Shown: piece after piece, positions 1 through 15,153 of the stretch
Layout: each line of letters opens with the position of its first letter
Position numbering within the stretch: the stretch's first letter is position 1
Origin: Polynucleobacter necessarius
Lineage (GTDB): Bacteria; Pseudomonadota; Gammaproteobacteria; Burkholderiales; Burkholderiaceae
Length of the DNA stretch: 32,000 bases
Assembly (NCBI RefSeq): GCF_900095195.1
Contig: NZ_LT606950.1
Location: 304,163 to 336,162 of the forward strand
Reading direction: 5' to 3'
The notes under the pieces: model-generated
Seen by the model: the letters and a program-made list of their open reading frames with translations, nothing else
The model's database searches: none
Told to the model about the DNA's origin: nothing
Position numbers and translations under genes: made by a program

Positions 1-841
1 GTGCATTAGTTGCAGGAAGTAAACGCATAGACGCAAATGCTTTAGCAATGGCCAAAGATTTAAAAATCGTTCCCAACATTTCAGTGGGCTATAACAATTT
101 TGATGTATCTGCCATTACTGCGGCTGGTGTCATGACAACCAATACACCCGATGTGTTGACCGATACTACCGCTGACTTTGGTTTTGCTTTGCTCATGGCA
201 ACAGCGCGGCGTATCACCGAATCAGAGCATTGGGTGCGCGCTGGCCATTGGGACAAATGGTCGATTGTGAATAACCCACTCGGTATGGATTTGCATCACA
301 GCACAATCGGCATCATTGGTATGGGACGGCATTGGACAGGGTGTTGCTAAACGAGCATTGGGTTTTGGCATGAATGTGATTTATCACAATCGCAGTCGTT
401 TATCGGAAGCGGATGAGAGGGCATGTGGCGCACGCTACGTATCAAAAGAAGAAATTACTACGAACTGTGGATCACGTGGTCCTGGTATTGCCATATACCG
501 CCGAAAGCCATCACACCACTGGAGCTGAAGAGCTTGCCTTCATGAAACCCACGGCAACCCTTATCAATATTGTTCGTGGCGGGATTGTTGATGACTTGGC
601 TTTGGCGCAAGCCCTGAAAGAAAAACGAATATTTGTTGCTAGTCTAGATGTATTTGATGGGGAGCCAAACGTGAATCCTGAGTTACTCAAATTGAGCAAT
701 GTTGTTCTAGCTCCGCACATTGCGAGCGCGACTGAAAAAGCCCACAGAGCCATGGTGGACCTCGCAATCGAAAACTTGCAAGCAGCGTTGGCCGGGAAAA
801 AACCGCCCAGCTTAATTAATGCTGAGGCATTTAAAGGGTAG
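1..841 (+). pseudogene. D-isomer-specific 2-hydroxyacid dehydrogenase (glyoxylate/hydroxypyruvate reductase family), frameshifted; 5' end lies outside the window
   Basis: ORF pieces 48-350, 316-528 and 413-841 are in three different frames. Together they read as one protein: ...NISVGYNNFDV...GIIGMGR|IGQGVAKRALGFGMNVIYHNRS...YVSKEE|LLRTVDHVVLVLPYT... The NAD-binding GxGxxG motif and the catalytic R/E/H motifs (VRGGIVD, DVFDGEP, APHIASAT) are present. The frame is open from base 3. Frame breaks lie near 320-330 and 450-460. Confidence 0.85.
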
Positions 842-886
842 CACTTGTTTCTTGCTTTCGAAAAGGTTGCCGGAGAATATCAATGA

Positions 887-1193: not shown

Positions 1194-2450
1194 TTAAAGC
1201 AGTCCATCAAAAAGCGCTATATCTACTAGGTCACCCGGAGCAACATTTCCTTGGTCGTGACCCAGAATGACAAAACAGTTTGCCTCGCTCATGGAGCGCA
1301 AAATGCCCACCCCTTGACTGCCAGTCAGTCGCACACTTGGCTTGCCATCAGCATTGCGCCCCAAGATGGCGCGTTGAAATTCGGTGCGACCAGGTTTCTT
1401 ACGAATCGCTGTTTCGGCAATCGCTTGAACTAGTGGAGGCATTGTTTGAGTGGCCCCATTGAGTTGCAGCAGTGCGCTGCGAACGAGCTGATAAAAAGTC
1501 ACCATAACGGCAACAGGGTTACCTGGTAAACCAAAAAATAGGGTTTTGCGGGCAGGCGATTTTCCAGAAGCCAACATCACCCAGTTCTTGCATGATTTGT
1601 TTGGTGAAGTCTGCTTCACCAACAGAGACGCCACCAGATGAAATTAATACATCGGCTTTAGAGACTGCTTCGATGAATGCTTGTTTTAGTGAAGCAGGAT
1701 CATCACGCACAATTCCACAATCGATAATGTCTAGATCTAGACGATTGAGTAAGCCAGTAAGACTGTAACGATTGCTGTCATAGATGCTGCCAGGATCCAG
1801 GGTCTGACCCAAGGAACGTAATTCATCTCCCGAAGACAAAATAGCGACTTTGAGCTTGCGCCGAACATGAAGCGTGGCGATACCAAGGGATGCTGCCAAT
1901 CCTAAATCCGAGGGTCGCAATAACCGACCAGCAGCAATTGCAGGTTTGCCTTGTTGTAAATCCTCGCCACGCAGGCGACGATTTTCCCCTGCCTTCAATT
2001 GATTTGACTGAAATCGAACGAATTGATTGTCGTTGCTCGTTGTGAATTCCTGAGGGATCACGGTGTCGCAATCCGCAGGCATGACGGCGCCTGTCATGAT
2101 TTTGAGGCATTCACCTTGAGCAATTTTGCCCTCGTAAGGTTTGCCAGCCAAAGCAGTGCCAACAATCTTTAATGAGATCTCAGCGCTATTTTGATTCAGG
2201 CATTGGCCATTAAATACAAAGCCATCCATCGCTGAGTTATCAGCAACGGGACATCAATGGGTGAAAGGAGATCGCGCGCTAGAACCCGATTAATTGCTTG
2301 ATCTAGTGGAACACTCTCGATATCGGCAGGATCATTGATTGCAGCGGATTCTTGGAGTAATTCATCGACAAGATCTGCAATCGCCTGACGAGCTTCATCA
2401 ACATGAAGTGATGACGTCAGCAAGATGGGGTTATTGGGAGAATGCTTCAT
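1194..2450 (-). pseudogene. moeA: molybdopterin molybdenumtransferase MoeA, disrupted by at least two frame breaks and a small internal deletion
   Basis: Three - strand ORF pieces (2196-2450, 1519-2229, 1194-1634) are collinear with MoeA: ...SPIDVP|..MDGFVFNG...ISSGGVSVGEADF...GFWKIA|..LFFGLPGNPVAV...DIALFDGLL. Breaks lie near 2225-2250 and 1530-1580. Only about 9 codons separate FWKIA from GLPGNPV, against 18 in E. coli MoeA. Confidence 0.9.
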
Positions 2451-3050
2451 GCTGAAATGGCTTCTAGTGATTTCAATTCTTCTAGAGTATTGACGTTTGC
2501 AAATACTTGCTCATCGTCGAATACGACAGTGCTGCTCTTAATTTCTTGAAACCAACGATCAATTTTGAAATCGCCTTTACGCAAAAAAGCATCCAACGAT
2601 TCTTGTAAATTAGCGCGCATTAGGCAGAACACTGGTTGTGCCCAAACCCTGTCATCGACACCTTTGGTCGAGGCATAAACCAATTGAAAATCGCCACGTT
2701 CAAGTTCGGCGGTAAGCTTTATGCCGAGATTTTGGGGCAATAGCGGTGAGTCACAGGGTGTGGTTAGTAGGTATGGTTTTACAGGCCTTGAGCCCCACCG
2801 AGAATCCTGCAAGTGGCCCAGAAAAATCGGGGGTCTCATCCAGAATTACTGGGTAGCTATAGACGGCGTATTTGGTGATATTACGGTTGGCGTTAATCAG
2901 GATGGATCCAACCTGGGGCCTTAGGCGGGAGATGGTCGATTCAATTAAGGGTTTTTGGTGAAATGGAATTAATCCTTTATCGATTCCGCCCATTCGTTGG
3001 GCACGACCGCCAGCCAGAATGAGTCCGGTTATATTTTTAGCAGTAATCAT
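2447..3050 (-). pseudogene. mobA: molybdenum cofactor guanylyltransferase MobA, frameshifted
   Basis: The N-terminal piece (2751-3050) reads MITAKNITGLILAGGRAQRMGGIDKGLIPF...GPLAGFSVGLKACKT. The C-terminal piece (2447-2839), in another frame, reads YLLTTPCDSPLLPQNL... The break is at the A4/CC run near 2772-2780. The stop overlaps the moeA ATG (ATGA). Confidence 0.85.
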
Positions 3051-3052
3051 TA

Positions 3053-3750
3053 GCCACCAATGTAAGACATTTCAACTTTACGAGAATTGGATTTCAGACC
3101 TTCCGTTTGCGAGCCCCGAATTTCAGAATAGTGATTATTGCGTCCAGACCAGGTATTCATGATGGCGTTCGCAATTTCTAAATCGGTTTTATCAGAGCGC
3201 AATAAGGATTTGAAACAAACCCCTCATTCGCAAACAAACATAGATACATTTGGCCATCAGTAGAAATGCGTGCACGCGTGCATTCATGGCAGAAGGTTTG
3301 TGTCACGCTGGATATCATCTGATTCATCTGCATAACGCCAACGCTGGGCTACCTCACCAGGGTAGTTTGGTTCCATTGACTCCAGCGGAAATGTTGCATG
3401 GATCCTCGAGATAACCTCTTTAGATGGCAATACTTTTGCCATATTCCAACCATTCGAGCTACCAACGTCCATAAATTCGATGAAGCGCAAAATAATACCG
3501 CTGCCCTTGAAATGGTTTGCCATTGGCACGATCTCGTGATCGTTCGTTCCTTTTTTCACCACAATATTGACTTTGATGTTCTCAAAGCCAGCGTCTTGCG
3601 CGGCAGCAATGTCATCCAAAACATCGGCCACCGAAAATCAACATCGTTCATTTTGCGAAAGATGTCATCGTTCAAACCATCGAGACTGACGGTTAGCCTT
3701 TGCAATCCCGCTGCTTTTAAGGAAACTGCTTTTTTGCGCAAGATGCTACC
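3053..3750 (-). pseudogene. moaA: GTP 3',8-cyclase MoaA, 3' two-thirds (5' part is at 11050-11282 on the other strand); three further frameshifts
   Basis: The - strand reads (G)[38 protein letters not shown]|[25 protein letters not shown]...[15 protein letters not shown]|[31 protein letters not shown]|[34 protein letters not shown]...RKVEMSYIGG*. Frame breaks lie near 3631, 3312 and 3217-3223. The canonical C-terminal CxxCxRxR and IGG tail are present. Confidence 0.85.
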
Positions 3751-3815
3751 ACCCGCTTCAAAGCGCTTGGATCTGCCGATAACTCCACTTGAGGTAAAAC
3801 TTGATTACGATTCAT
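3751..3815 (-). pseudogene. yceD: 5' fragment (about 21 codons) of yceD (DUF177), detached from the rest of the gene by the inversion
   Basis: The - strand from ATG 3815-3813 reads [22 protein letters not shown]. This continues in frame with [26 protein letters not shown]... starting at 11283 on the + strand. Confidence 0.55.
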
Positions 3816-3867
3816 GACATCAGTCCAAATCAAGGCAAGTGCAAAATCTGCAGTAATCACTAAATTC

Positions 3868-4464
3868 ATGAGTTCATCGAATAACCCACCGTTAATTTTG
3901 GCATCCACTTCGGTCTACCGTCGCGAGCTTTTAACTCGCTTACGCATTCCATTCGAAGTGGTCTCACCCAAGGTCGATGAGACACCACTTACTGGCGAGA
4001 CCACGCTGGACCTAGCGTTGCGATTGGCGAACGCCAAAGCTGCAGCAGTTGCAAAAATACACCCCGATACCTGGGTCATTGGCTCTGATCAGGTTGCCGA
4101 TCTTTGTGGTGCTGCGATAGGTAAACCCGGAAATTTTGATAGAGCGCTTGCACAACTTCAACTCATGCGCGGGCAAACCATCACCTTTCATACTGCACTC
4201 TGCTTGATGAAAAACGATGTTCACACCACCCTGAGCATTCCCACGGAAGTGACTTTTCGCAAACTCTCCGACGATGTTCTAGAGAATTATTTGCGCGCAG
4301 AAGAGCCCTACGACTGCGCGGGAAGCGCAAAGTCTGAAGGCCTCGGAATCAGTCTATTGGAGGCGATTAAAAGCGATGATCCAACCGCCCTAATTGGCTT
4401 GCCACTCATTGCGCTGACGGGTTTATTGCGAGATGCAGGTTTCGCTATTCCGGCTACCAAATAG
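3868..4464 (+). CDS. maf: Maf-like nucleoside triphosphate pyrophosphatase (septum formation inhibitor family)
   Basis: ORF 3814-4464. The family N-terminus MSSSNNPPLILASTSVYRRELL begins at 3868. The ATG at 3814 is a possible longer start. Confidence 0.85.
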   Translation: MSSSNNPPLILASTSVYRRELLTRLRIPFEVVSPKVDETPLTGETTLDLALRLANAKAAAVAKIHPDTWVIGSDQVADLCGAAIGKPGNFDRALAQLQLMRGQTITFHTALCLMKNDVHTTLSIPTEVTFRKLSDDVLENYLRAEEPYDCAGSAKSEGLGISLLEAIKSDDPTALIGLPLIALTGLLRDAGFAIPATK

Positions 4465-4467
4465 ATT

Positions 4468-5238
4468 ATGGCAACGCTCGGCACACTCTATTTAATTCCG
4501 AATACTTTAGGCAATGACGCTCGTGCAGAGCAATTACCTTGGGTCTTATCAAGTGAGACGATTGCCTGTACTGCAAAGCTGCGGCATTGGATTGCCGAAG
4601 ATGCTAAAACAGCGCGGGCATTTTTAAAAGCAATCGATAGCATCTCACCACTCGCTTGCGCCATTCAAGAAATGCAAATGTCGGAATGGCGCGGCACATC
4701 CCGTCATGCAAAGTATGGTGACGCCGTTAAACCTGCTGACTTACTCAAACCATTACTGGCTGGTAACGATATGGGTTTGATGTCCGAAGCAGGTGTTCCA
4801 GGCGTCGCTGATCCTGGTGCTGAATTGGTTCTCGCGGCCCATCGCTTCTGTGCGCAAGTCAAACCATTAGTGGGGCCAAGCTCGATCCTGCTTGGCCTGA
4901 TGGCAAGTGGTCTTAACGGTCAGCGCTTTGCTTTTCAAGGCTACCTCCCGCAGGGAGCTCCAGAGCGAAGCGCCAAACTCAAACAACTTGAGACTGAGTC
5001 CCGCAAATTGAAACAAACCCAGATTTGGATCGAGACGCCGTACCGCAATACCGCCATGCTGCTGGCGTGCACTCAAGCGTTAGCACCGCAAACATTGCTT
5101 TGCCTTGGTGTAGACCTTAGCCTTCCATCGGAGATGATTGCCACACTCTTCATTGCAGAGTGGCGCAAGCGCTACCCAAATGAAGCGGCCTGCGCAGCAC
5201 TACAAAATAGGCCAACGGTATTTCTGCTGTTGGCCTAG
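4468..5238 (+). CDS. SAM-dependent methyltransferase, tetrapyrrole-methylase (RsmI/YraL-like) fold
   Basis: Intact 256-aa ORF with motifs GTLYLIPNTLG, SEAGVPGVADPG, GPSSILLGLMASGLNGQRFAFQGYLP and ETPYRN. It starts 3 nt after maf. Confidence 0.7.
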   Translation: MATLGTLYLIPNTLGNDARAEQLPWVLSSETIACTAKLRHWIAEDAKTARAFLKAIDSISPLACAIQEMQMSEWRGTSRHAKYGDAVKPADLLKPLLAGNDMGLMSEAGVPGVADPGAELVLAAHRFCAQVKPLVGPSSILLGLMASGLNGQRFAFQGYLPQGAPERSAKLKQLETESRKLKQTQIWIETPYRNTAMLLACTQALAPQTLLCLGVDLSLPSEMIATLFIAEWRKRYPNEAACAALQNRPTVFLLLA

Positions 5239-5267
5239 TGATTCATTCATTAAATATATTCTGACTA

Positions 5268-6215
5268 TTACTTGAGGTCTGGTGATTTGACCAAGGCCTT
5301 GCCCGCTGCTGCACCTGCCTCAGCACCAAAACGTTTGGCGACGCGCTCCGCAAAGTTTTCTTTCATGGTGTAGTCCAGTACATCGGGCGCCTTAAAGATG
5401 TCGCGAGCAACCGAGTCAACTGTGCCATAACCATCTACCAAGCCCAACTTAACTGCCTGCTCACCATTCCAAATGCGACCTGAAAATAAATCGGGTGCAT
5501 CCTTTAAGCGATCACCACGACCCTCTTTCACTACCTGAATAAATTGTTGGTGAATTTCGTCGATCATCTTTTTCACCATCTCGACTTGCTTGGGCTCTTC
5601 CTTGCTAAAAGGATCGAGCATGCCTTTGTTTGATCCAGCGGTAATCATGCGTCGTGTGACGCCCAACTTATCCATCAAACCAGTAAAACCAAAGCCCTCC
5701 ATGATCACTCCAATGGAACCCACCAAGCTCGCTTTATCGACCAGAATTTGATCTGCGGCAACCGCCGCATAGTAACCACCGGATGCGCAGATATCCTCCA
5801 CCACTACATAAAATGGCTTCTTGGGATAAAGCTTACGTAAGCGGTGAATCTCATCATTAATCATGCCCGCTTGAACTGGCGAACCCCCTGGACTGTTTAT
5901 GCGCAAAATGACGCCGGCACTATGTTCATTTTCAAATGCCGATACCAAAGAAGAATTGATATCCATCGCATTGGCCATCGAGCTAGATGAGATTTCTCCC
6001 TCCAAAGTCACCATCGCTGTATGTCGCTCAACGCCCATGCCACGACCAGGAATATGAAAATCAAATACCACGAGCACCACTGCAATAATCACCAACAAAG
6101 TCAGTACACGAAGTACCGCTTTCCAGCGACGCGCCTTACGAGTCTCTTTGAGATTCTCTAAGAGCAAATATTCTAGGGCTTGACGCTCCCAGTTTGGATT
6201 GGAGTTATTTTCCAT
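5268..6215 (-). CDS. sppA: signal peptide peptidase SppA, 36K type (peptidase S49)
   Basis: ORF 5268-6281 trimmed to the MENNSNPNWERQ start, which has an AGAGGA Shine-Dalgarno sequence 6 nt upstream. It has an N-terminal TM helix and S49 motifs INSPGGSP and ASGGYY. Confidence 0.85.
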   Translation of the reverse strand: MENNSNPNWERQALEYLLLENLKETRKARRWKAVLRVLTLLVIIAVVLVVFDFHIPGRGMGVERHTAMVTLEGEISSSSMANAMDINSSLVSAFENEHSAGVILRINSPGGSPVQAGMINDEIHRLRKLYPKKPFYVVVEDICASGGYYAAVAADQILVDKASLVGSIGVIMEGFGFTGLMDKLGVTRRMITAGSNKGMLDPFSKEEPKQVEMVKKMIDEIHQQFIQVVKEGRGDRLKDAPDLFSGRIWNGEQAVKLGLVDGYGTVDSVARDIFKAPDVLDYTMKENFAERVAKRFGAEAGAAAGKALVKSPDLK

Positions 6216-6225
6216 ATGGATTCCT

Positions 6226-6888
6226 CTATAGATTCTTTTCAAGCCATTGAGCCAGTTGCGGAACATCATCGACATGCGCAAGCGATGGCGATGCTTTTAA
6301 CGTATCTGGTGGGTGGGCACCATAGGTCACCGCAATGGCATCAACGCCGGCATTGGCTGCCATATCTAAATCGTGAGTCGTATCCCCGATCATCAACATC
6401 CGACGCGTAGGCACTTGGGTTGCATCGGATAGCTCGAGCAGCATTCCCGGATGGGGTTTGGAGAAAGACTCATCCGCTGTGCGTGTTTCGTGAAAGAGAT
6501 GTCCAATCTGATGGTGCTTAAGCGAACGGTCTAGACCAACGCGCGATTTGCCAGTAGCTACCCCCAAGAGATACTGATCGCTTCGGAGCTTTTCTAGTAA
6601 CTCACGAATACCCACAAACAAATCCAGTTCGTGATCTTTTGCTAAATAGTGATAACGAAAACGATCCGTCAACTTTGGAAAGTGCACTGGTTCAATCCAT
6701 GGGACTGCGCGTCGCAACGAATCCTGGATGCCTAACCCAATCACCGAGCTGGCCAAAGAATCATCCGGCTCTTGAAAACCCAAATCGCGGCACACTTGCT
6801 GAATGCAGTGCACGATCGTTGGCGTGGAATCCATAATCGTGCCGTCCCAATCCCAAATAGCGACGATTGGCTTCGATCCTTCAGACAT
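6226..6888 (-). CDS. HAD-superfamily hydrolase, phosphoglycolate phosphatase-like
   Basis: 220-aa ORF with the DxDxT motif (WDWDGTIMDS), a conserved GKSR and the distal GDTTHD motif. Confidence 0.8.
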   Translation of the reverse strand: MSEGSKPIVAIWDWDGTIMDSTPTIVHCIQQVCRDLGFQEPDDSLASSVIGLGIQDSLRRAVPWIEPVHFPKLTDRFRYHYLAKDHELDLFVGIRELLEKLRSDQYLLGVATGKSRVGLDRSLKHHQIGHLFHETRTADESFSKPHPGMLLELSDATQVPTRRMLMIGDTTHDLDMAANAGVDAIAVTYGAHPPDTLKASPSLAHVDDVPQLAQWLEKNL

Positions 6889-6911
6889 TGTTCATGCGTT
6901 TCAGTTGCGTT

Positions 6912-7919
6912 TTATTGCTCAAAATTTTGCATCATGGCAGTAAATTCTGCTGGCAGCGGTGATTCAATTCGCATCTTTTCACCAGTACGAGGGTGCGTAA
7001 AACCCGCCAAGTGTGCATGCAAATATAAGCGCTTCGATTTAATAAGCTTATCTTGGTCTTCAAATCCATATTTATCGTCGCCCAAAATCGCATGACCTAA
7101 TTTTTGCAGATGTACCCGAATTTGATGAGTGCGGCCCGTTTTCAGCTGCGCCTCAGCCAGCGTCATGGCAGCGTCTGCGCGCGTAAATATTTTGGTAACA
7201 CGCAAAGCCGTATGGCTGGGTAATCCATCGGGATCCACTCGCACCCTTCTCTCACCATTGGCAAGGAGATATTTATGCAAAGGGTATTTCAATTGCATCA
7301 CTTGCGCACCCTGCTGAATTTCACCGTGTGCCAGTAAATAGTAGCGCTTGTCCGTTTGACCCTCACGAATTTGGCGATGCAATTCCACGAGCGCACTGCG
7401 CTTTTTTGCCAGCAGCAATACTCCGGAAGTATCGCGATCGAGGCGATGAACCAATTCCAAGAATTTCAATTTTGGTCGAGCAATCCGCAACGCCTCAATT
7501 ACACCCAAGGCAATCCCGGAGCCGCCGTGTACCGCCAATCCAGCAGGCTTATCCACAATTAGTAATGCCTCATCCTCAAACAAAATGGGCATCTTCTCAG
7601 AAAAGCCTCGGGCACGAGATTTGGTTTTGGCAGTATTAACTGCCGCCATTTGGGCTGGCTCGGCAATTCGGACCGGGGGAATTCGTACAACATCTCCCTC
7701 AATCAAGCGAGTCGTTGGCTCAGCCCGTTTTTTGTTAATCCGAACCTCACCCGAGCGAATAATCCGATAAACGTGACTTTTGGGGGCTCCTTTGGCCCAA
7801 CGCAGTAAATAGTTATCCAAACGCTGACCAGCTTCCTCTGGACCAATGGTTTGCAAATGGACTGCAGCGGGAGGGGGCGTTTTTACCTTGGAAGGCTTGG
7901 ATACTGGGTCGGATTTCAT
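6912..7919 (-). CDS. rluC: 23S rRNA pseudouridine synthase, RluC type (RluA family with N-terminal S4 domain)
   Basis: 335-aa ORF with an S4-like domain (RLDNYLLR...RIIRSGEVRINKKR) and the catalytic motif HRLDRDTSGVLLLAK. It is divergent from rne, as in many proteobacteria. Confidence 0.85.
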   Translation of the reverse strand: MKSDPVSKPSKVKTPPPAAVHLQTIGPEEAGQRLDNYLLRWAKGAPKSHVYRIIRSGEVRINKKRAEPTTRLIEGDVVRIPPVRIAEPAQMAAVNTAKTKSRARGFSEKMPILFEDEALLIVDKPAGLAVHGGSGIALGVIEALRIARPKLKFLELVHRLDRDTSGVLLLAKKRSALVELHRQIREGQTDKRYYLLAHGEIQQGAQVMQLKYPLHKYLLANGERRVRVDPDGLPSHTALRVTKIFTRADAAMTLAEAQLKTGRTHQIRVHLQKLGHAILGDDKYGFEDQDKLIKSKRLYLHAHLAGFTHPRTGEKMRIESPLPAEFTAMMQNFEQ

Positions 7920-8379
7920 GATTTTGCTCCCTTGTCGCCTCGGAAAAAGACGATAAGGGACTCAACAATACCCCATTGTCATTCAACTTATGCCGTACAA
8001 TCAACGCTCTAGCCAATTTATTCGCTAGATACCCGCCAAAAAAATGGCGTGAATTGTGGGGCTTGGAGTCGCCTTTTAATAGACTCTCGGGGTTGCCCCT
8101 CCCCCGTTGCAATGAGGCACAGGGTTGGTGTGCCGTATGCCGCGACCCGCGATTAGATGACAGTTTTCAGGCGCGCGCCTGCATGGATGACCTAAAGGAG
8201 GTCTCTGCGGCGATCGTCAAGTGTGGCACCGATTTAACCAACAGTTAACGAGGTGAACTAGGAAAAAAGTGCCTTATTTGCATGATCCACACTCATACAC
8301 CGCCATAGGCTTGCCTATGCGGCCAATAACTGACCCCTAACGCATCGCGCTACTCCCACCTCCCCCATAGGAGAGTGTT
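7920..8379 (+). promoter_or_regulatory. rluC/rne divergent control region and long structured rne 5' leader (candidate autoregulatory UTR)
   Basis: This is a 460-bp non-coding gap upstream of rne. It contains hairpins at 8116-8134 (GGCACA/TGTGCC) and 8300-8322 (9-bp stem, CTTG loop) and a 14-nt GC palindrome at 8168-8181. An AGGAGAG Shine-Dalgarno sequence ends at 8373, 6 nt before the ATG at 8380. E. coli rne is known to carry a ~360-nt regulatory leader. The promoter position is not resolved here. Confidence 0.35.
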
Positions 8380-10992
8380 ATGAAACGCATGTTGTTTAAT
8401 GCAACTCAACAAGAAGAGTTGCGAGTTGCCATCGTCGATGGTCAAAAACTCATTGATATTGATATCGAAGCTGCCGGTCGTGAACAACGTAAAGGCAATA
8501 TCTACAAAGGTGTTATCACCCGCATTGAGCCCTCTTTAGAGGCCTGCTTTGTGAACTACGGCGAGGAGCGTCATGGCTTCCTCCCCTTCAAAGAAGTTGC
8601 CAGAGCCTATTTCAAAGAGGGTATTGATGTGCGCAATGCGTCCATTAAGGATGCCCTGCGTGAAGGTCAAGAAATTATTGTTCAGGTAGAAAAAGAAGGG
8701 CGTGGCCAAAAAGGTGCCGCCCTCACCTCTTTTATCTCTTTAGCGGGTCGTTACTTGGTGTTAATGCCCAACAAACCACGGGGTGGTGGCGTCTCCCGTC
8801 GCATTGAAGGCGAAGACCGTCAAGAACTGCGCGAAGCCATGGCTCAATTAGAGGTGCCTGATGGCATGAGCATCATTGCCCGTACTGCTGGTATTGGTCG
8901 TGATGCTACCGAATTGCAGTGGGACTTAAGCTACCTCTTGCAATTGTGGAAAGCCATTGATGAAGCTGCTAAGGGCAATTCAGCCCCGCTATTGATTTAC
9001 CTCGAGTCCAGCTTGGTGATTCGTGCGATCCGCAATTACTTCCAACCGGATATTGGCGAAATCCTGATCGATACCGATGACATTTACGAGCAAGCTGCTG
9101 CCTTTATGTCGGTGGTGATGCCAGATAACTTGCCACGAGTAAAGCGCTATCAAGATGATGCGCCGCTCTTCTCACACTTCCAAATTGAACATCAGATTGA
9201 GATTGCCTATTCACGCACTGTGCCACTACCATCGGGTGGCGCGATTGTGATTGACCACACTGAAGCACTTGTTTCTGTAGACGTGAACTCTGCACGCGCT
9301 ACCCGCGGTTCCGATATTGAAGAAACAGCGACTCGCACAAATTTAGAAGCTGCCGATGAAATCGCCCGACAAGCCCGTTTGCGCGACTTAGGCGGCTTGA
9401 TCGTGATTGACTTCATTGATATGGAGTCCAGCAAGGCTCAGAAGGATGTTGAGAATCGCCTACGCGATGCTCTGCGTCATGACCGTGCGCGCGTTCAAAT
9501 GGGCAAGATCTCTAAGTTTGGCTTGATGGAAATGTCCCGCCAACGTTTGCGCCCAGCGTTATCCGAAGGCAGTCATGTCACCTGCCCACGTTGCAATGGC
9601 ACTAGTCACATTCGTGATACCGAATCTTCTGCATTGCAAGTTCTACGCATCATTCAAGAAGAGGCAATAAAAGAAAACACAGCGGCGATTCATACGCAGG
9701 TTCCAGTCGAAGTGGCTGCGTTCCTGCTCAATGAAAAGCGTGCAGAAGTCATCAAGATTGAGACTCGCTTCAAAGTTAATGTCTTGTTAGTACCGAATAA
9801 GTATTTAGAAACACCGCACTATAAGTTAGAGCGTTTGCGTCATGATGATCCTCGTTTGGATGATCAAAAGGCTAGCTATGTCATGTCTGAAGAAGCAGCA
9901 CGCGAATTAGAAACTGACACTACAGTTAGTCGTAAAGATGCGGATGTAAAAGCGCGTCCTGAAGCTGCAGTCAAAGGCATCACCCCAACGCAACCAGCAC
10001 CAATCAGTCAGCCGCAGCCAGCACGCGCTGAGAAGGCTGCTGGCGAGAGTTCTGGTGGTTTCCTTGGTTTCATTAAGAAACTCTTCACCTCCAGCCCAGC
10101 TGCAGAAGAAAAACCTTCACCAAGTAATGGCCGTGGTCGCAACCAAGGGCGTAATGGTGATCGTAATCGCGGTCGCAATCGTCGCGGTGAGCGCAACGGT
10201 GATCGTGCAGAGCGCTCCGCAGCAAATGCTGGAGAGGGTACTACTGAAACTAATAGCAATCGTGGCCGCAACAACCGCAACGGCAACCGTAACCAAAACA
10301 ATCAAAGTAACCAAAATGGCCCGAAACCAGAACGTCAAGCGAATCCCGCTGCCGTAACGCCTGCCACCGAAGCAACTCCTGGTAGTGAAACAACTTCAAC
10401 GGCTGATAGCGATGAGCGTCGCGGTCGTGGATGTAACCGAAATGATCGTGGTGAGCGCACCGAAATTGGTGATGGCGCAACTGCGGCAACAGCCGCCCCA
10501 TCTGCAAGTCCTTTTAGAAGGCCTCCCGTTGGTATGGCCGGCGCATCCGTTTCAATGCCGATTCAAAACATTGTCAATAGTTTTGGTGATAATCTGGTTG
10601 CCGAAAAATCTGAGCGCAACGAGAGGCCAGCACGCGCACCGAGTCAATCAAATCGTTCTGAAAAAACTGCTGGCTCAGCATCATCAGCAGCACCAGTAGC
10701 ACCGCTTGCAGTTGTAGCTACTGCAACAGCGATTGAAGTGATTGCAAAACCAGCGCCAGAACTGCCAAAAGTTGCTTTTCAAGCGCTTGAAGAAACGCCA
10801 TTGCATAGCGTTGTGCAATCCGCTGGAATGATTTGGGTCGCTACCGATGCTTCGAAGCATACAGAAGCGCAAAACCAGATTCAGTCTGAACCCGTCATTC
10901 ATAACGTCGGCAGAACACCAAAGCCAGCGGCCACGCTTCCAGAAGGCCCAATGGTTCTAGTTGAAACTGGCGGCCAAGAAAAAACGGTCTAA
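8380..10992 (+). CDS. rne: ribonuclease E
   Basis: 870-aa ORF. The N-terminus is the S1/catalytic domain (MKRMLFNATQQEELRVAIVDGQKL..., DFIDM Mg site, Zn-link CPRCNGTSHIRD). The C-terminal ~350 aa are low-complexity Arg/Asn/Gly-rich scaffold. Confidence 0.95.
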   Translation: MKRMLFNATQQEELRVAIVDGQKLIDIDIEAAGREQRKGNIYKGVITRIEPSLEACFVNYGEERHGFLPFKEVARAYFKEGIDVRNASIKDALREGQEIIVQVEKEGRGQKGAALTSFISLAGRYLVLMPNKPRGGGVSRRIEGEDRQELREAMAQLEVPDGMSIIARTAGIGRDATELQWDLSYLLQLWKAIDEAAKGNSAPLLIYLESSLVIRAIRNYFQPDIGEILIDTDDIYEQAAAFMSVVMPDNLPRVKRYQDDAPLFSHFQIEHQIEIAYSRTVPLPSGGAIVIDHTEALVSVDVNSARATRGSDIEETATRTNLEAADEIARQARLRDLGGLIVIDFIDMESSKAQKDVENRLRDALRHDRARVQMGKISKFGLMEMSRQRLRPALSEGSHVTCPRCNGTSHIRDTESSALQVLRIIQEEAIKENTAAIHTQVPVEVAAFLLNEKRAEVIKIETRFKVNVLLVPNKYLETPHYKLERLRHDDPRLDDQKASYVMSEEAARELETDTTVSRKDADVKARPEAAVKGITPTQPAPISQPQPARAEKAAGESSGGFLGFIKKLFTSSPAAEEKPSPSNGRGRNQGRNGDRNRGRNRRGERNGDRAERSAANAGEGTTETNSNRGRNNRNGNRNQNNQSNQNGPKPERQANPAAVTPATEATPGSETTSTADSDERRGRGCNRNDRGERTEIGDGATAATAAPSASPFRRPPVGMAGASVSMPIQNIVNSFGDNLVAEKSERNERPARAPSQSNRSEKTAGSASSAAPVAPLAVVATATAIEVIAKPAPELPKVAFQALEETPLHSVVQSAGMIWVATDASKHTEAQNQIQSEPVIHNVGRTPKPAATLPEGPMVLVETGGQEKTV

Positions 10993-11013
10993 GGCTTTTT
11001 CTTTTTCTCCAGA

Positions 11014-11047
11014 CCGCCTCGTATCCCAAAAGGATATTGGGCGGTTT
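11014..11047 (+). terminator. imperfect hairpin plus TTT downstream of rne (possible terminator/attenuator)
   Basis: The 13-bp stem pairs 11014-11026 with 11032-11044 (1 mismatch, 2 G-U pairs). The loop is CAAAA, followed by TTT. Confidence 0.3.
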
Positions 11048-11049
11048 GG

Positions 11050-11282
11050 CAGAAACTCCGTTTCACAGATCAAAACTATTCGTATTTAGCACACAAAGAA
11101 TTACTCAGTTTTGAAGAAATTACCCGCCTGTCCAACATCTTCGCAACCCTGGGCGTTGAAAAGATTCGCCTAACCGGTGGCGAACCGCTGCTTCGTAAGA
11201 ACTTAGAAGTATTAATCGAAATGTTGGCTGCCGTCCGCACTCCAGCAGGCAAACATTTGGGTCTCACCTTCACGACTAACGG
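11050..11282 (+). pseudogene. moaA: GTP 3',8-cyclase MoaA, 5' fragment lacking the radical-SAM cysteine motif
   Basis: The + strand reads ...[77 protein letters not shown] and then breaks. The 3' continuation [11 protein letters not shown]... is at 3750 on the - strand. No CxxxCxxC is present in this frame upstream, back to the rne stop. Confidence 0.8.
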
Positions 11283-11788
11283 ATTTTTGTGCTCCGCAGA
11301 CCTATCAAGGTGCTGGTTTTTTAGGCATCTCGGATCTGCCCAGGCTGGCTGAGGAAGTTTCTACAGTTGCATCAGGGGACGGCTTTAATTGGGAAGTTCA
11401 AACCCATTTTGGGATTCCCCGGGGGTTGAGCCCCGTCAAATCTGCAATTAGGCCTCAACGGGCGCCTACATCTGATATGCCAGCGGTGTTTACAGGATTG
11501 CGCTGTAGATTTAGCTGAAAAACGGCGTTTTATCATTCTGGCAACTGAAGAAGAGGCGGATCACTATCCAGTAGAGGACGAGGACCAAGAGCCCTTGGTT
11601 GCCAGTCAGCAATTTAACTTTTGGAGACCATTGAGGATGAAATTTTGCTCTCTATCCCTTTGATTCCAAAGCATCCCGAGGGCTTTTGTGAGTCCCATCT
11701 CCTGGCTTTGGGGGGCGAAGAGCCTGAAGAAGTTTCTTCTGAACGGGAAAATCCCTTTAACATATTGAAAAATATGAAGAAAAACTAA
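11283..11788 (+). pseudogene. yceD: yceD (DUF177, large-subunit rRNA accumulation protein family), 3' part with two frameshifts
   Basis: No ORF of 60 aa or more exists here. Three frames read collinearly: [51 protein letters not shown]|SNLQLGLNGRLHLICQRCLQDCAVDLAEKRRFIILATEEEADHYPVEDEDQEPLVASQQFN|LLETIEDEILLSIPLIPKHPEGFCESHLL...ENPFNILKNMKKN*. Breaks lie near 11421-11436 and 11615-11622. The gene sits immediately upstream of rpmF, as yceD does in E. coli. Confidence 0.75.
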
Positions 11789-11873
11789 ATTTGGGATGCC
11801 GCTTTTGGCTTTTGGGATGCCCCGTTGTTTTTGCTCACTTCATTGATAAATCAAGCATTTAGACGCTTTTCCG

Positions 11874-11882
11874 TGCTAGAAT
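11874..11882 (+). promoter_or_regulatory. candidate extended -10 promoter element (TGCTAGAAT) for rpmF
   Basis: A TGnTAGAAT motif lies 24 nt upstream of the rpmF ATG. There is no good -35 at 17-bp spacing. This is sequence inspection only. Confidence 0.25.
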
Positions 11883-11905
11883 GTCGCCTTATTTAGGAGT
11901 TCATT

Positions 11906-12085
11906 ATGGCCGTTCAACAAAATAAAAAATCACCTTCCAAACGTGGCATGCATCGTGCGCACGACTTTTTGACCGCACCTGCTACGGCTGTTGAAGCCAC
12001 TACTGGTGAGGCTCATTTGCGCCACCACATTTCACCTAACGGCTACTATCGTGGTCGTAAAGTTGTTAAAACCAAAAACGACTAA
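11906..12085 (+). CDS. rpmF: 50S ribosomal protein L32
   Basis: 59-aa ORF, below the ORF-track cutoff: [64 protein letters not shown] Shine-Dalgarno sequence lies 7 nt upstream. Confidence 0.95.
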
Positions 12086-14244: not shown

Positions 14245-15153
14245 ATGACATTTGCATTCGTTTTCCCAGGACAAGGCTCTCAATCTGTTGGCATGCTCAG
14301 TTCCATTGCTGAGCGCCCCGAAGTGCGAGCAACATTGCAAGAGGCTTCCGAGGCTTTGGGTGAGGATGTGGCGAAATTAATCGCTGAAGGTCCTGCCGAA
14401 GCATTGTCATTAACTACGAACACCCAACCAGTAATGCTGACTGCAGCGATTGCGTTTTATCGCGCATGGCTAGCAGCGGGAGGCCCTGTTCCAAAGGTCA
14501 TGGCAGGCCACAGCTTGGGTGAGTACTCAGCCTTAGTTGCCGCTGGCGTGATTTCGTTTAAAGATGCCGTTCCCTTGGTGCGTTTTCGTGCTGAAGCGAT
14601 GCAGACGGCTGTGCCTGTCGGTACCGGCGGCATGGCTGCCATTTTGGGTTTGGATGACGCAACTGTGATTCAAGTGTGCGCGCAAGCGAGCGCTGAATCA
14701 GGCGGGGTTGTCGAGGCAGCGAACTTTAATGCACCCGGCCAAGTAGTCATAGCTGGTGCAAGTGATGCTGTAGCAAAAGCATGCGAACTTTTAAAAGTAG
14801 CGGGTGCTAAACGTGCGTTGCCGTTGCCAGTATCTGCACCATTCCATTCTTCTTTATTGCAGCCTGCTTCTGAAAAGCTCAAGGGCTATTTAGCCAACAT
14901 TGAATTTAAAGCACCTACTATTTCTGTAATCAATAACGTGGATGTAGAAATTCTGAATGATCCTGCGGCAATCAAAGATGCTTTAGTGCGTCAAGCGGCT
15001 AAACCGGTTCGCTGGCAAGAAACCATTCAAGCGATGGTGGGTCAAGGGGTTAATCAAGTCGTGGAGTGCGGCCCTGGAAAAGTATTAGCCGGTTTGACTA
15101 AGCGTATTAATGACCAGGTGACTGGCGTGCCAGTATTTGAGAGGCGAGCTTGA
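14245..15153 (+). CDS. fabD: malonyl-CoA-ACP transacylase; the extreme 3' end appears frameshifted
   Basis: 302-aa ORF with FVFPGQGSQ, GHSLGEYSA and the motif APFHSSLL. It ends ...GVPVFERRA*. The adjacent frame from 15144 reads ASLNEVLASLK* (stop 15177-15179), which resembles the normal FabD C-terminal helix. Confidence 0.9.
   Translation: MTFAFVFPGQGSQSVGMLSSIAERPEVRATLQEASEALGEDVAKLIAEGPAEALSLTTNTQPVMLTAAIAFYRAWLAAGGPVPKVMAGHSLGEYSALVAAGVISFKDAVPLVRFRAEAMQTAVPVGTGGMAAILGLDDATVIQVCAQASAESGGVVEAANFNAPGQVVIAGASDAVAKACELLKVAGAKRALPLPVSAPFHSSLLQPASEKLKGYLANIEFKAPTISVINNVDVEILNDPAAIKDALVRQAAKPVRWQETIQAMVGQGVNQVVECGPGKVLAGLTKRINDQVTGVPVFERRA

Follow-up and report, generated by a model that had tools for sequence, protein, structure and literature searches.

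The locus and its inverted block

The subject of this work is a 32,000-nucleotide stretch of the genome of Polynucleobacter necessarius, an endosymbiont of the ciliate Euplotes (contig NZ_LT606950.1, positions 304,163 to 336,162; this whole stretch is called the window below), and within it an inverted block whose ends lie inside two genes, moaA and yceD. The features of the locus are collected in Table 1. Six-frame translation located all four pieces of the split genes. On the plus strand moaA ends with ...GLTFTTNG and resumes on the minus strand from 3750, while yceD begins on the minus strand (3815 to 3751) and continues on the plus strand from 11282/11283. Thus both halves of both genes sit at reciprocal junctions, as was proposed in a preliminary description made from the sequence alone. 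Its positions were correct and needed a sole correction, a one-base codon offset: the glycine codon occupies 11281-11283 and the final moaA-derived base is 11282. The two moaA pieces, when joined, give one continuous Radical_SAM match over profile positions 25-164 with 79.7 bits (Pfam), so that they do form a contiguous MoaA, as had been claimed. The 3' piece of yceD aligns to its family profile PF02620. The 22-residue 5' piece is too short for Pfam, and its alignment to yceD of relatives was found at the nucleotide level.

Table 1. Features at the inverted locus (window coordinates, 5' to 3' on the forward strand)
Feature	Position	Strand	Description
moeA pseudogene	1197..2480	-	three frame pieces, tblastn with MoeA of L013
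mobA pseudogene	2450..3050	-	two reading frames, tblastn with free-living MobA
moaA 3' remnant (pseudogene)	3050..3750	-	Radical_SAM 91-164 plus Mob_synth_C; two frames by tblastn; one 1-bp deletion in common with the sister, an 11-bp and a 1-bp deletion in the window only
Junction 1, crossover dinucleotide CC	3749..3750		moaA 3' remnant / yceD 5' remnant
Inverted block, 7,532 bp	3751..11282		maf, RsmI-like methyltransferase, sppA, HAD phosphatase, rluC, rne and the moaA 5' remnant
yceD 5' remnant, codons 1-22	3751..3815	-	still beside maf, as in the ancestral divergent pair
maf, intact	3868..4464	+	Pfam Maf, TIGR00172; longest open reading frame (ORF) from 3814; NCBI product 198 aa
Protein of 256 aa, weakly similar to RsmI-like methyltransferases, intact	4468..5238	+	87.5% identical to free-living orthologue
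sppA, intact	5268..6215	-	Peptidase_S49; 94.6% identical to free-living orthologue
HAD-family phosphatase, intact	6226..6888	-	HAD_2
rluC, intact	6912..7919	-	
rne (RNase E), intact	8380..10992	+	870 aa; now co-directional with rpmF-plsX-fab
Strong compound hairpin, 52 nt	11004..11055	+	directly past the rne stop; -32 kcal/mol, z -4.9
moaA 5' remnant	11069..11282	+	Radical_SAM profile positions 24-86; without start codon and CxxxCxxC cluster
Junction 2, crossover dinucleotide GG	11281..11282		moaA 5' remnant / yceD 3' remnant
yceD 3' remnant	11283..11788	+	PF02620 YceD, 64 bits; three window-only 1-bp deletions
Conserved element 5' of rpmF	11843..11899	+	includes TGCTAGAAT (extended -10-like) and AGGAG; on the uninverted side
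rpmF, intact	11906..12085	+	identical to free-living L32; first gene of the unaffected right flank

The relatives used for comparison were ten genomes or metagenome-assembled genomes (MAGs), 80 GTDB species representatives and 80 metagenome contigs, which gave 170 loci with matches. The ten free-living Polynucleobacter genomes and MAGs, found by exact look-up of an identical L32, are all uninverted, and in each of them moaA (370-375 aa) as well as yceD (191-195 aa) is intact. Their blastn alignments to the window break cleanly, with the middle piece on the opposite strand. In every relative examined the block 3751-11282 aligns in reverse with respect to both flanks, and the breakpoints fall at 3750/3751 and 11282/11283. 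The order in the relatives is moeA<mobA<moaA<rne, rluC>HAD>sppA, MT<maf, yceD>rpmF>plsX>fabH... (MT, the methyltransferase-like gene), which is exactly the ancestral order that had been predicted, and it is found also in a sister strain about 99% identical to the window. Among the 170 loci the yceD site is contiguous in 149, the moaA site in 61 and both sites in 56; a collinear match across either junction of the window occurs in none (0/170). These data support the proposal that both genes were split by one inversion, which ends in moaA on one side and in yceD on the other.

The junctions were reconstructed to the base. Junction 1 reads GATGCTA-CC-ACCCGCTT in the window, its parents being the reverse complements of moaA (GATGCTACCGTTAG) and of yceD (AAAATCCACCCGCTT); junction 2 reads ACTAAC-GG-ATTTTTGTGC, with the parents ACTAACGGTAGC in moaA and GGGTGGATTTTTG in yceD. 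The sister strain and free-living genomes served as proxies for the parental sequences, ...ACTAAC GG TAGCATC... for moaA and ...AAGCGGGT GG ATTTTTGTGC... for yceD, and junction 1, when reverse-complemented, is AAGCGGGT GG TAGCATC. The dinucleotide GG/CC is present once per junction, zero bases were gained or lost at either of them and the exchange is exactly reciprocal. The parental alignments also bear out the earlier statement that only GG is common to both sequences at the crossover. By calculation with equal base frequencies, a junctional identity of at least 2 bp arises by chance with P about 0.16 per random join; since about 16% of random joins would show as much, the exchange was effectively homology-independent.

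No inverted repeat pairing 3750 with 11282 was found in the window, which is free of N, and neither an N nor an insertion sequence (IS) nor a target duplication is seen at the junctions. Likewise no tRNA lies near them. The Rfam scan returned two tRNAs only and no riboswitch or leader near the junctions. The block harbors no foreign or mobile gene, as all its ORFs are housekeeping orthologues. Repeat search and gene content thus agree with the preliminary description, in which no transposase, IS end or inverted repeat had been seen. The 2-bp GG/CC overlap without IS or repeat supports the illegitimate recombination which had been suggested there.

Polarity and age of the inversion

The sister strain (ERZ27248707 and run SRR32119647) is represented by a 184-kb ENA metagenome contig (L011), which encodes the Maf protein of the window and has the ancestral order. 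Its identity to the window amounts to 98.96% within the block and to 99.05% in the right flank. A separate assembly from Logan (run SRR32119647, L174) matches this contig at 99.98% identity and is uninverted as well. Since so close a sister is uninverted, the inversion is private to the strain and recent, having occurred after a split of about 1% nucleotide divergence. The arrangement of the window is the derived one, as neither junction is present in the related loci. Other symbiont lineages are uninverted too, namely P. necessarius PPGSP2 (L055) and a contig (L172) that encodes the same RluC as strain STIR1; RluC of the window differs from the STIR1 protein at 35 of 335 residues, so that the window does not come from STIR1. 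The best Maf match among the GTDB species representatives is 87%, and a Maf-based metagenome scan returned relatives of at most 88% identity only, all of them uninverted where informative.

Two further scenarios were considered and rejected. Horizontal replacement of the block disagrees with a divergence from the sister that is alike inside and outside of it, and re-inversion in the sister strain is unparsimonious against about 150 uninverted relatives.

The base composition carries the same imprint. The GC skew of the block is -0.054 in the window, whereas the natively oriented block in the relatives (rpmF on the plus strand) has a skew of +0.02 to +0.05; the right flank has +0.09 to +0.10, alike in the window and the relatives. 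Gene by gene, the flipped skew matches the native pattern, in which plus-strand genes have about +0.10 and minus-strand genes about 0 to +0.05. The skew of the block has not re-equilibrated, which is consistent with a recent event, but a mis-oriented contig would show the same sign-reversed skew as a real inversion.

The state of moaA refines the preliminary description, which had moaA split by the inversion. The split is real, and comparison of the symbiont strains added that the gene had been frameshifted before the event. A 1-bp deletion in moaA (GATTTT-CGGTGG, just past ...FRKMNDVDF) is common to the window and the uninverted sister and absent from the free-living relatives. Therefore moaA had become a pseudogene by the time of the inversion, which cut a dead gene and did not kill a live one. 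Lesions found in the window only are a 217-bp, an 11-bp and a 1-bp deletion. The first of these, at 11068/11069 in comparison with the sister and free-living genomes, removes the start codon and the CxxxCxxC motif and has 1 bp (G) of microhomology. Thus a functional MoaA is not encoded here: its domains are recognisable, but cluster and start codon are deleted, several frameshifts are present and the gene is split. Lesions of the moaA region found in the sister only are a +1 insertion, an 8-bp deletion and a deletion of 2.1 kb, which took away mobA, the 3' end of moaA and most of moeA. Within this 2.1-kb deletion complex a 41-bp piece (L011 17982-18022, equal to window 3208-3247) was kept in inverted orientation between two deletions, and the same structure is seen in L174. 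It is a further illegitimate event of inversion type in moaA, independent of the first. The genes moaA-mobA-moeA are intact in all free-living relatives checked and were broken independently in four symbiont lineages: the window, the sister, PPGSP2 (L055 17347-19052) and the STIR1-like contig (L172 4682-6889). This implies that molybdenum-cofactor synthesis was lost in parallel.

The second gene that was cut, yceD, is dispensable in this clade. In the window it is a pseudogene and no functional YceD/DUF177 protein is encoded: the profile match is retained, but the inversion has divided the gene, which also carries three 1-bp deletions. The alignments contain no yceD lesion common to the window and the sister, where yceD (L011 9435-10002) has lost one base in the T-run at the breakpoint and carries two more deletions, of 3 bp and 1 bp. 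The two strains, aligned over the block and the right flank, have 13 listed small indels; 5 of them belong to the yceD remnant, and one more indel of the yceD region is in the T-run just beyond the aligned segment. Such a concentration of indels indicates that yceD has been neutral in both strains since about their split.

Altogether yceD was inactivated by differing lesions in three symbiont lineages, and two of these lesions are in homopolymer runs adjoining the inversion breakpoint codon; in PPGSP2 the lesion is a +1 insertion in the adjoining C-run (L055 9426-10002). In the STIR1-like contig yceD is intact and encodes 191 aa (L172 14150-14725).

Origin of the inversion and competing explanations

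We assign a probability of about 0.85 to the interpretation that the window carries a real, recent, lineage-specific inversion, which is present in a single strain of P. necessarius and arose by illegitimate (homology-independent) recombination. Several points weigh against it. The inverted arrangement is known from one assembly, and one genome only carries it, so that it may not be fixed in the population. A 22-mer of junction 1 had 0 matches among JGI metagenome contigs. Additionally, the 2-bp microhomology is uninformative, as it lies within chance (about 0.16), and the enzymology proposed below is what we infer from the appearance of the junctions.

One would argue that the arrangement is an assembly artefact, i.e. 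that the 7.5-kb segment was a separate or flipped contig and the true chromosome is ancestral. This view is favoured by the single assembly and by the uninverted sister of 99% identity. The proteins of the window (WP_114661906 to WP_114661930) are present in one NCBI record only, a contig of 1,550,368 bp, and no exact Rne, methyltransferase-like protein or junction-spanning ORF is on record in other assemblies, so these look-ups and the JGI scan brought no independent sequence with junction 1. However, misjoins occur at repeats, gaps and low-coverage ends, and here we see no repeat, no N and no base missing or duplicated. The breakpoints are in unique sequence inside genes; thus the junction k-mers must have existed in the reads for the assembler to use them. 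Random chimeric reads, moreover, yield single junctions and not a balanced reciprocal pair. We therefore regard an artefact as unlikely.

A second possibility is that the inversion arose by template switching during replication, at a fork stalled downstream of a head-on rne, the moaA region being fragile. The independent complex event of the sister, with its inverted 41-bp piece, happened in the same gene, and decomposition of the GC skew suggests that rne was ancestrally on the lagging strand. Microhomology-mediated U-turn inversions are also reported from organelle genomes (PMC4417113). However, the usual products of template switching are inverted duplications or deletions and not a balanced, base-perfect inversion, two events are insufficient to define a hotspot, and the direction of replication derives from skew alone. 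Template switching is thus very unlikely as the origin of this inversion. A related and unlikely reading is that the moaA stretch just 3' of rne is a recurrent breakage site in these symbionts devoid of mobile elements. Its basis is that two sisters, diverged by about 1%, each carry an independent inversion-type rearrangement that breaks in moaA, and that rne appears to have been ancestrally transcribed head-on to replication. If this were true, the inversion would have freed rne from its head-on orientation, and the comparison of the two genomes would yield, at base resolution, the spectrum of homology-independent structural mutations driven by conflict.

Homologous recombination between repeats or IS copies is the commonest route to bacterial inversions, and it could be proposed that inverted copies at the two sites were lost afterwards. 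This general knowledge is the ground for the proposal; specific evidence for it is not seen at this locus. At each junction the parental genes are restored base for base, without foreign residue or target-site duplication, and neither site bears a repeat in the sister or in any relative. Also the symbiont was reported to be without mobile elements (PMC4285135, PMC5632650). The scar-free junctions and the absence of inverted repeats or IS at the ends effectively refute a repeat- or IS-mediated inversion, and since-lost copies are extremely improbable. A site-specific invertase switch was rejected, as there are no inverted sites and no recombinase among maf, the methyltransferase-like gene, sppA, HAD, rluC, rne, rpmF and plsX.

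The illegitimate inversion that we favour proceeded as follows. Two sites 7.8 kb apart, one in moaA and the other in yceD, were broken and then rejoined crosswise in a reciprocal, conservative exchange within the 2-bp GG/CC overlap, which flipped six intact housekeeping genes. No base was lost at either junction, and this makes resection-dependent end joining less likely. A concerted break-and-rejoin process would fit better, which may have been subunit exchange by a type II topoisomerase or a direct ligation that joined two double-strand breaks without processing. The new arrangement may have persisted because both endpoints were in DNA that was no longer needed, i.e. in a frameshifted moaA of a decaying operon and in a dispensable yceD, and the genes of the block remained untouched. 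The inversion damaged no intact gene and was probably neutral. Lesions with a similar signature are found nearby, as the 217-bp deletion has 1 bp of identity, a 118-bp difference between window and sister has none, and the deletion of the sister contains the inverted 41-bp piece. The review PMC4285135, in the passage citing Boscaro et al., describes P. necessarius as eroded by illegitimate recombination without mobile elements. A neutral homology-independent inversion fits this published view of symbiont erosion and is the best explanation of the locus.

The case can be placed among known systems. Illegitimate recombination by exchange of DNA gyrase subunits is a model reportedly put forward by Ikeda and co-workers. 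The present inversion resembles this type in that unrelated sequences with 0-2 bp of identity were exchanged reciprocally and conservatively, and in the lack of a mobile element or long repeat. It differs from the classical cases, which are deletions or phage excision selected in E. coli, as a 7.5-kb inversion known from comparative genomics alone. The erosion of P. necessarius (Boscaro et al. 2013, as cited in PMC4285135) concerns the same organism group and has in common the lack of mobile elements, similar neighbouring lesions and the parallel decay of the moa genes. However, the published emphasis appears to be on deletions and pseudogenes, while here an inversion is known base by base and a sister of 99% identity gives its date. 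Inversions between rrn copies, IS or prophage repeats also have a flipped segment and a local reversal of GC skew, whereas this one has no repeats at its endpoints, is small, local and not symmetric to ori/ter, and ends inside genes. The invertase switches (Hin/Gin/FimB) are likewise conservative and reciprocal, and the serine invertases use a 2-bp crossover core. In contrast to them, the block has no inverted sites or recombinase, it contains housekeeping genes and no promoter or alternative cassettes, and its two orientations separate strains diverged by about 1% instead of coexisting in one population.

Therefore, what we describe is a clean but ordinary case of illegitimate recombination in an eroding genome, with no new kind of element or mechanism. 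Its value is in a balanced inversion without repeats or mobile elements that is known at base resolution and is well dated by the uninverted sister. It illustrates how gene order changes in a degenerating endosymbiont, where breakpoints persist in genes already released from selection. A full comparison of this near-identical pair could quantify illegitimate deletions, inversions and complex events in a genome that is reported to lack mismatch repair and mobile elements.

Genes of the block, the rne-rpmF interval and additional differences

The six genes of the block are all intact orthologues, with 86-95% protein identity to the free-living ones. The second of them had been called a methyltransferase in the preliminary description. 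Its RsmI-like similarity stands, but the assignment comes from a score below the cutoff (NCBIfam TIGR00096, 69.8 bits), and the 256-aa protein has no Pfam match.

The longest ORF of maf (ATG at 3814) overlaps the start codon of the divergent yceD (3815-3813) at window 3813-3816. Together with the NCBI start of Maf at 3868, this overlap implies that the control region of the divergent maf-yceD pair is tiny or lies inside coding sequence.

As a consequence of the inversion rne now lies upstream of, and co-directional with, rpmF-plsX-fab, having formerly stood before moaA-mobA-moeA; the gene order confirms what had been stated on this point. The gap between rne and rpmF-plsX-fabHDG consists of the hairpin and about 850 bp of pseudogene DNA. 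The hairpin is conserved across Polynucleobacter relatives, has no clear U-tract and belongs to no Rfam family; it is now the sole predicted barrier between rne and the rpmF operon. The element upstream of rpmF, ATAAATCAAGCATTTAG...TGCTAGAATGTCGCC...AGGAG, is near-invariant in seven sequences that are otherwise about 75-80% identical, and the spacer preceding it is unalignable. A scan of 10900-12000 for promoters and terminators returned no canonical sigma-70 site and no intrinsic terminator (the rne hairpin was not scored as one), and so the idea of a promoter comes from conservation. This element probably supplies rpmF with its own promoter, from which expression of rpmF would have continued after the inversion.

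Several differences between the two strains do not touch the junctions. Rne of the window differs from that of the sister at 21 of 870 residues despite DNA identity of about 99%, and the changes are mostly in the C-terminal half, which suggests relaxed selection or a fast-evolving scaffold region. The HAD phosphatase, intact in the window, is frameshifted near the C-terminus in the sister (L011 12416-13043) by a 2-bp difference at window 6301. The 118-bp stretch mentioned above (window 726-842) is absent from the sister, without junctional microhomology, and belongs to a region of gene fragments (a 2-Hacid_dh_C remnant in L011). Finally, FabD (window 14245-15153) has 302 aa in the window and the sister versus 311 aa in the free-living relatives, the shortened C-terminus being common to both strains.

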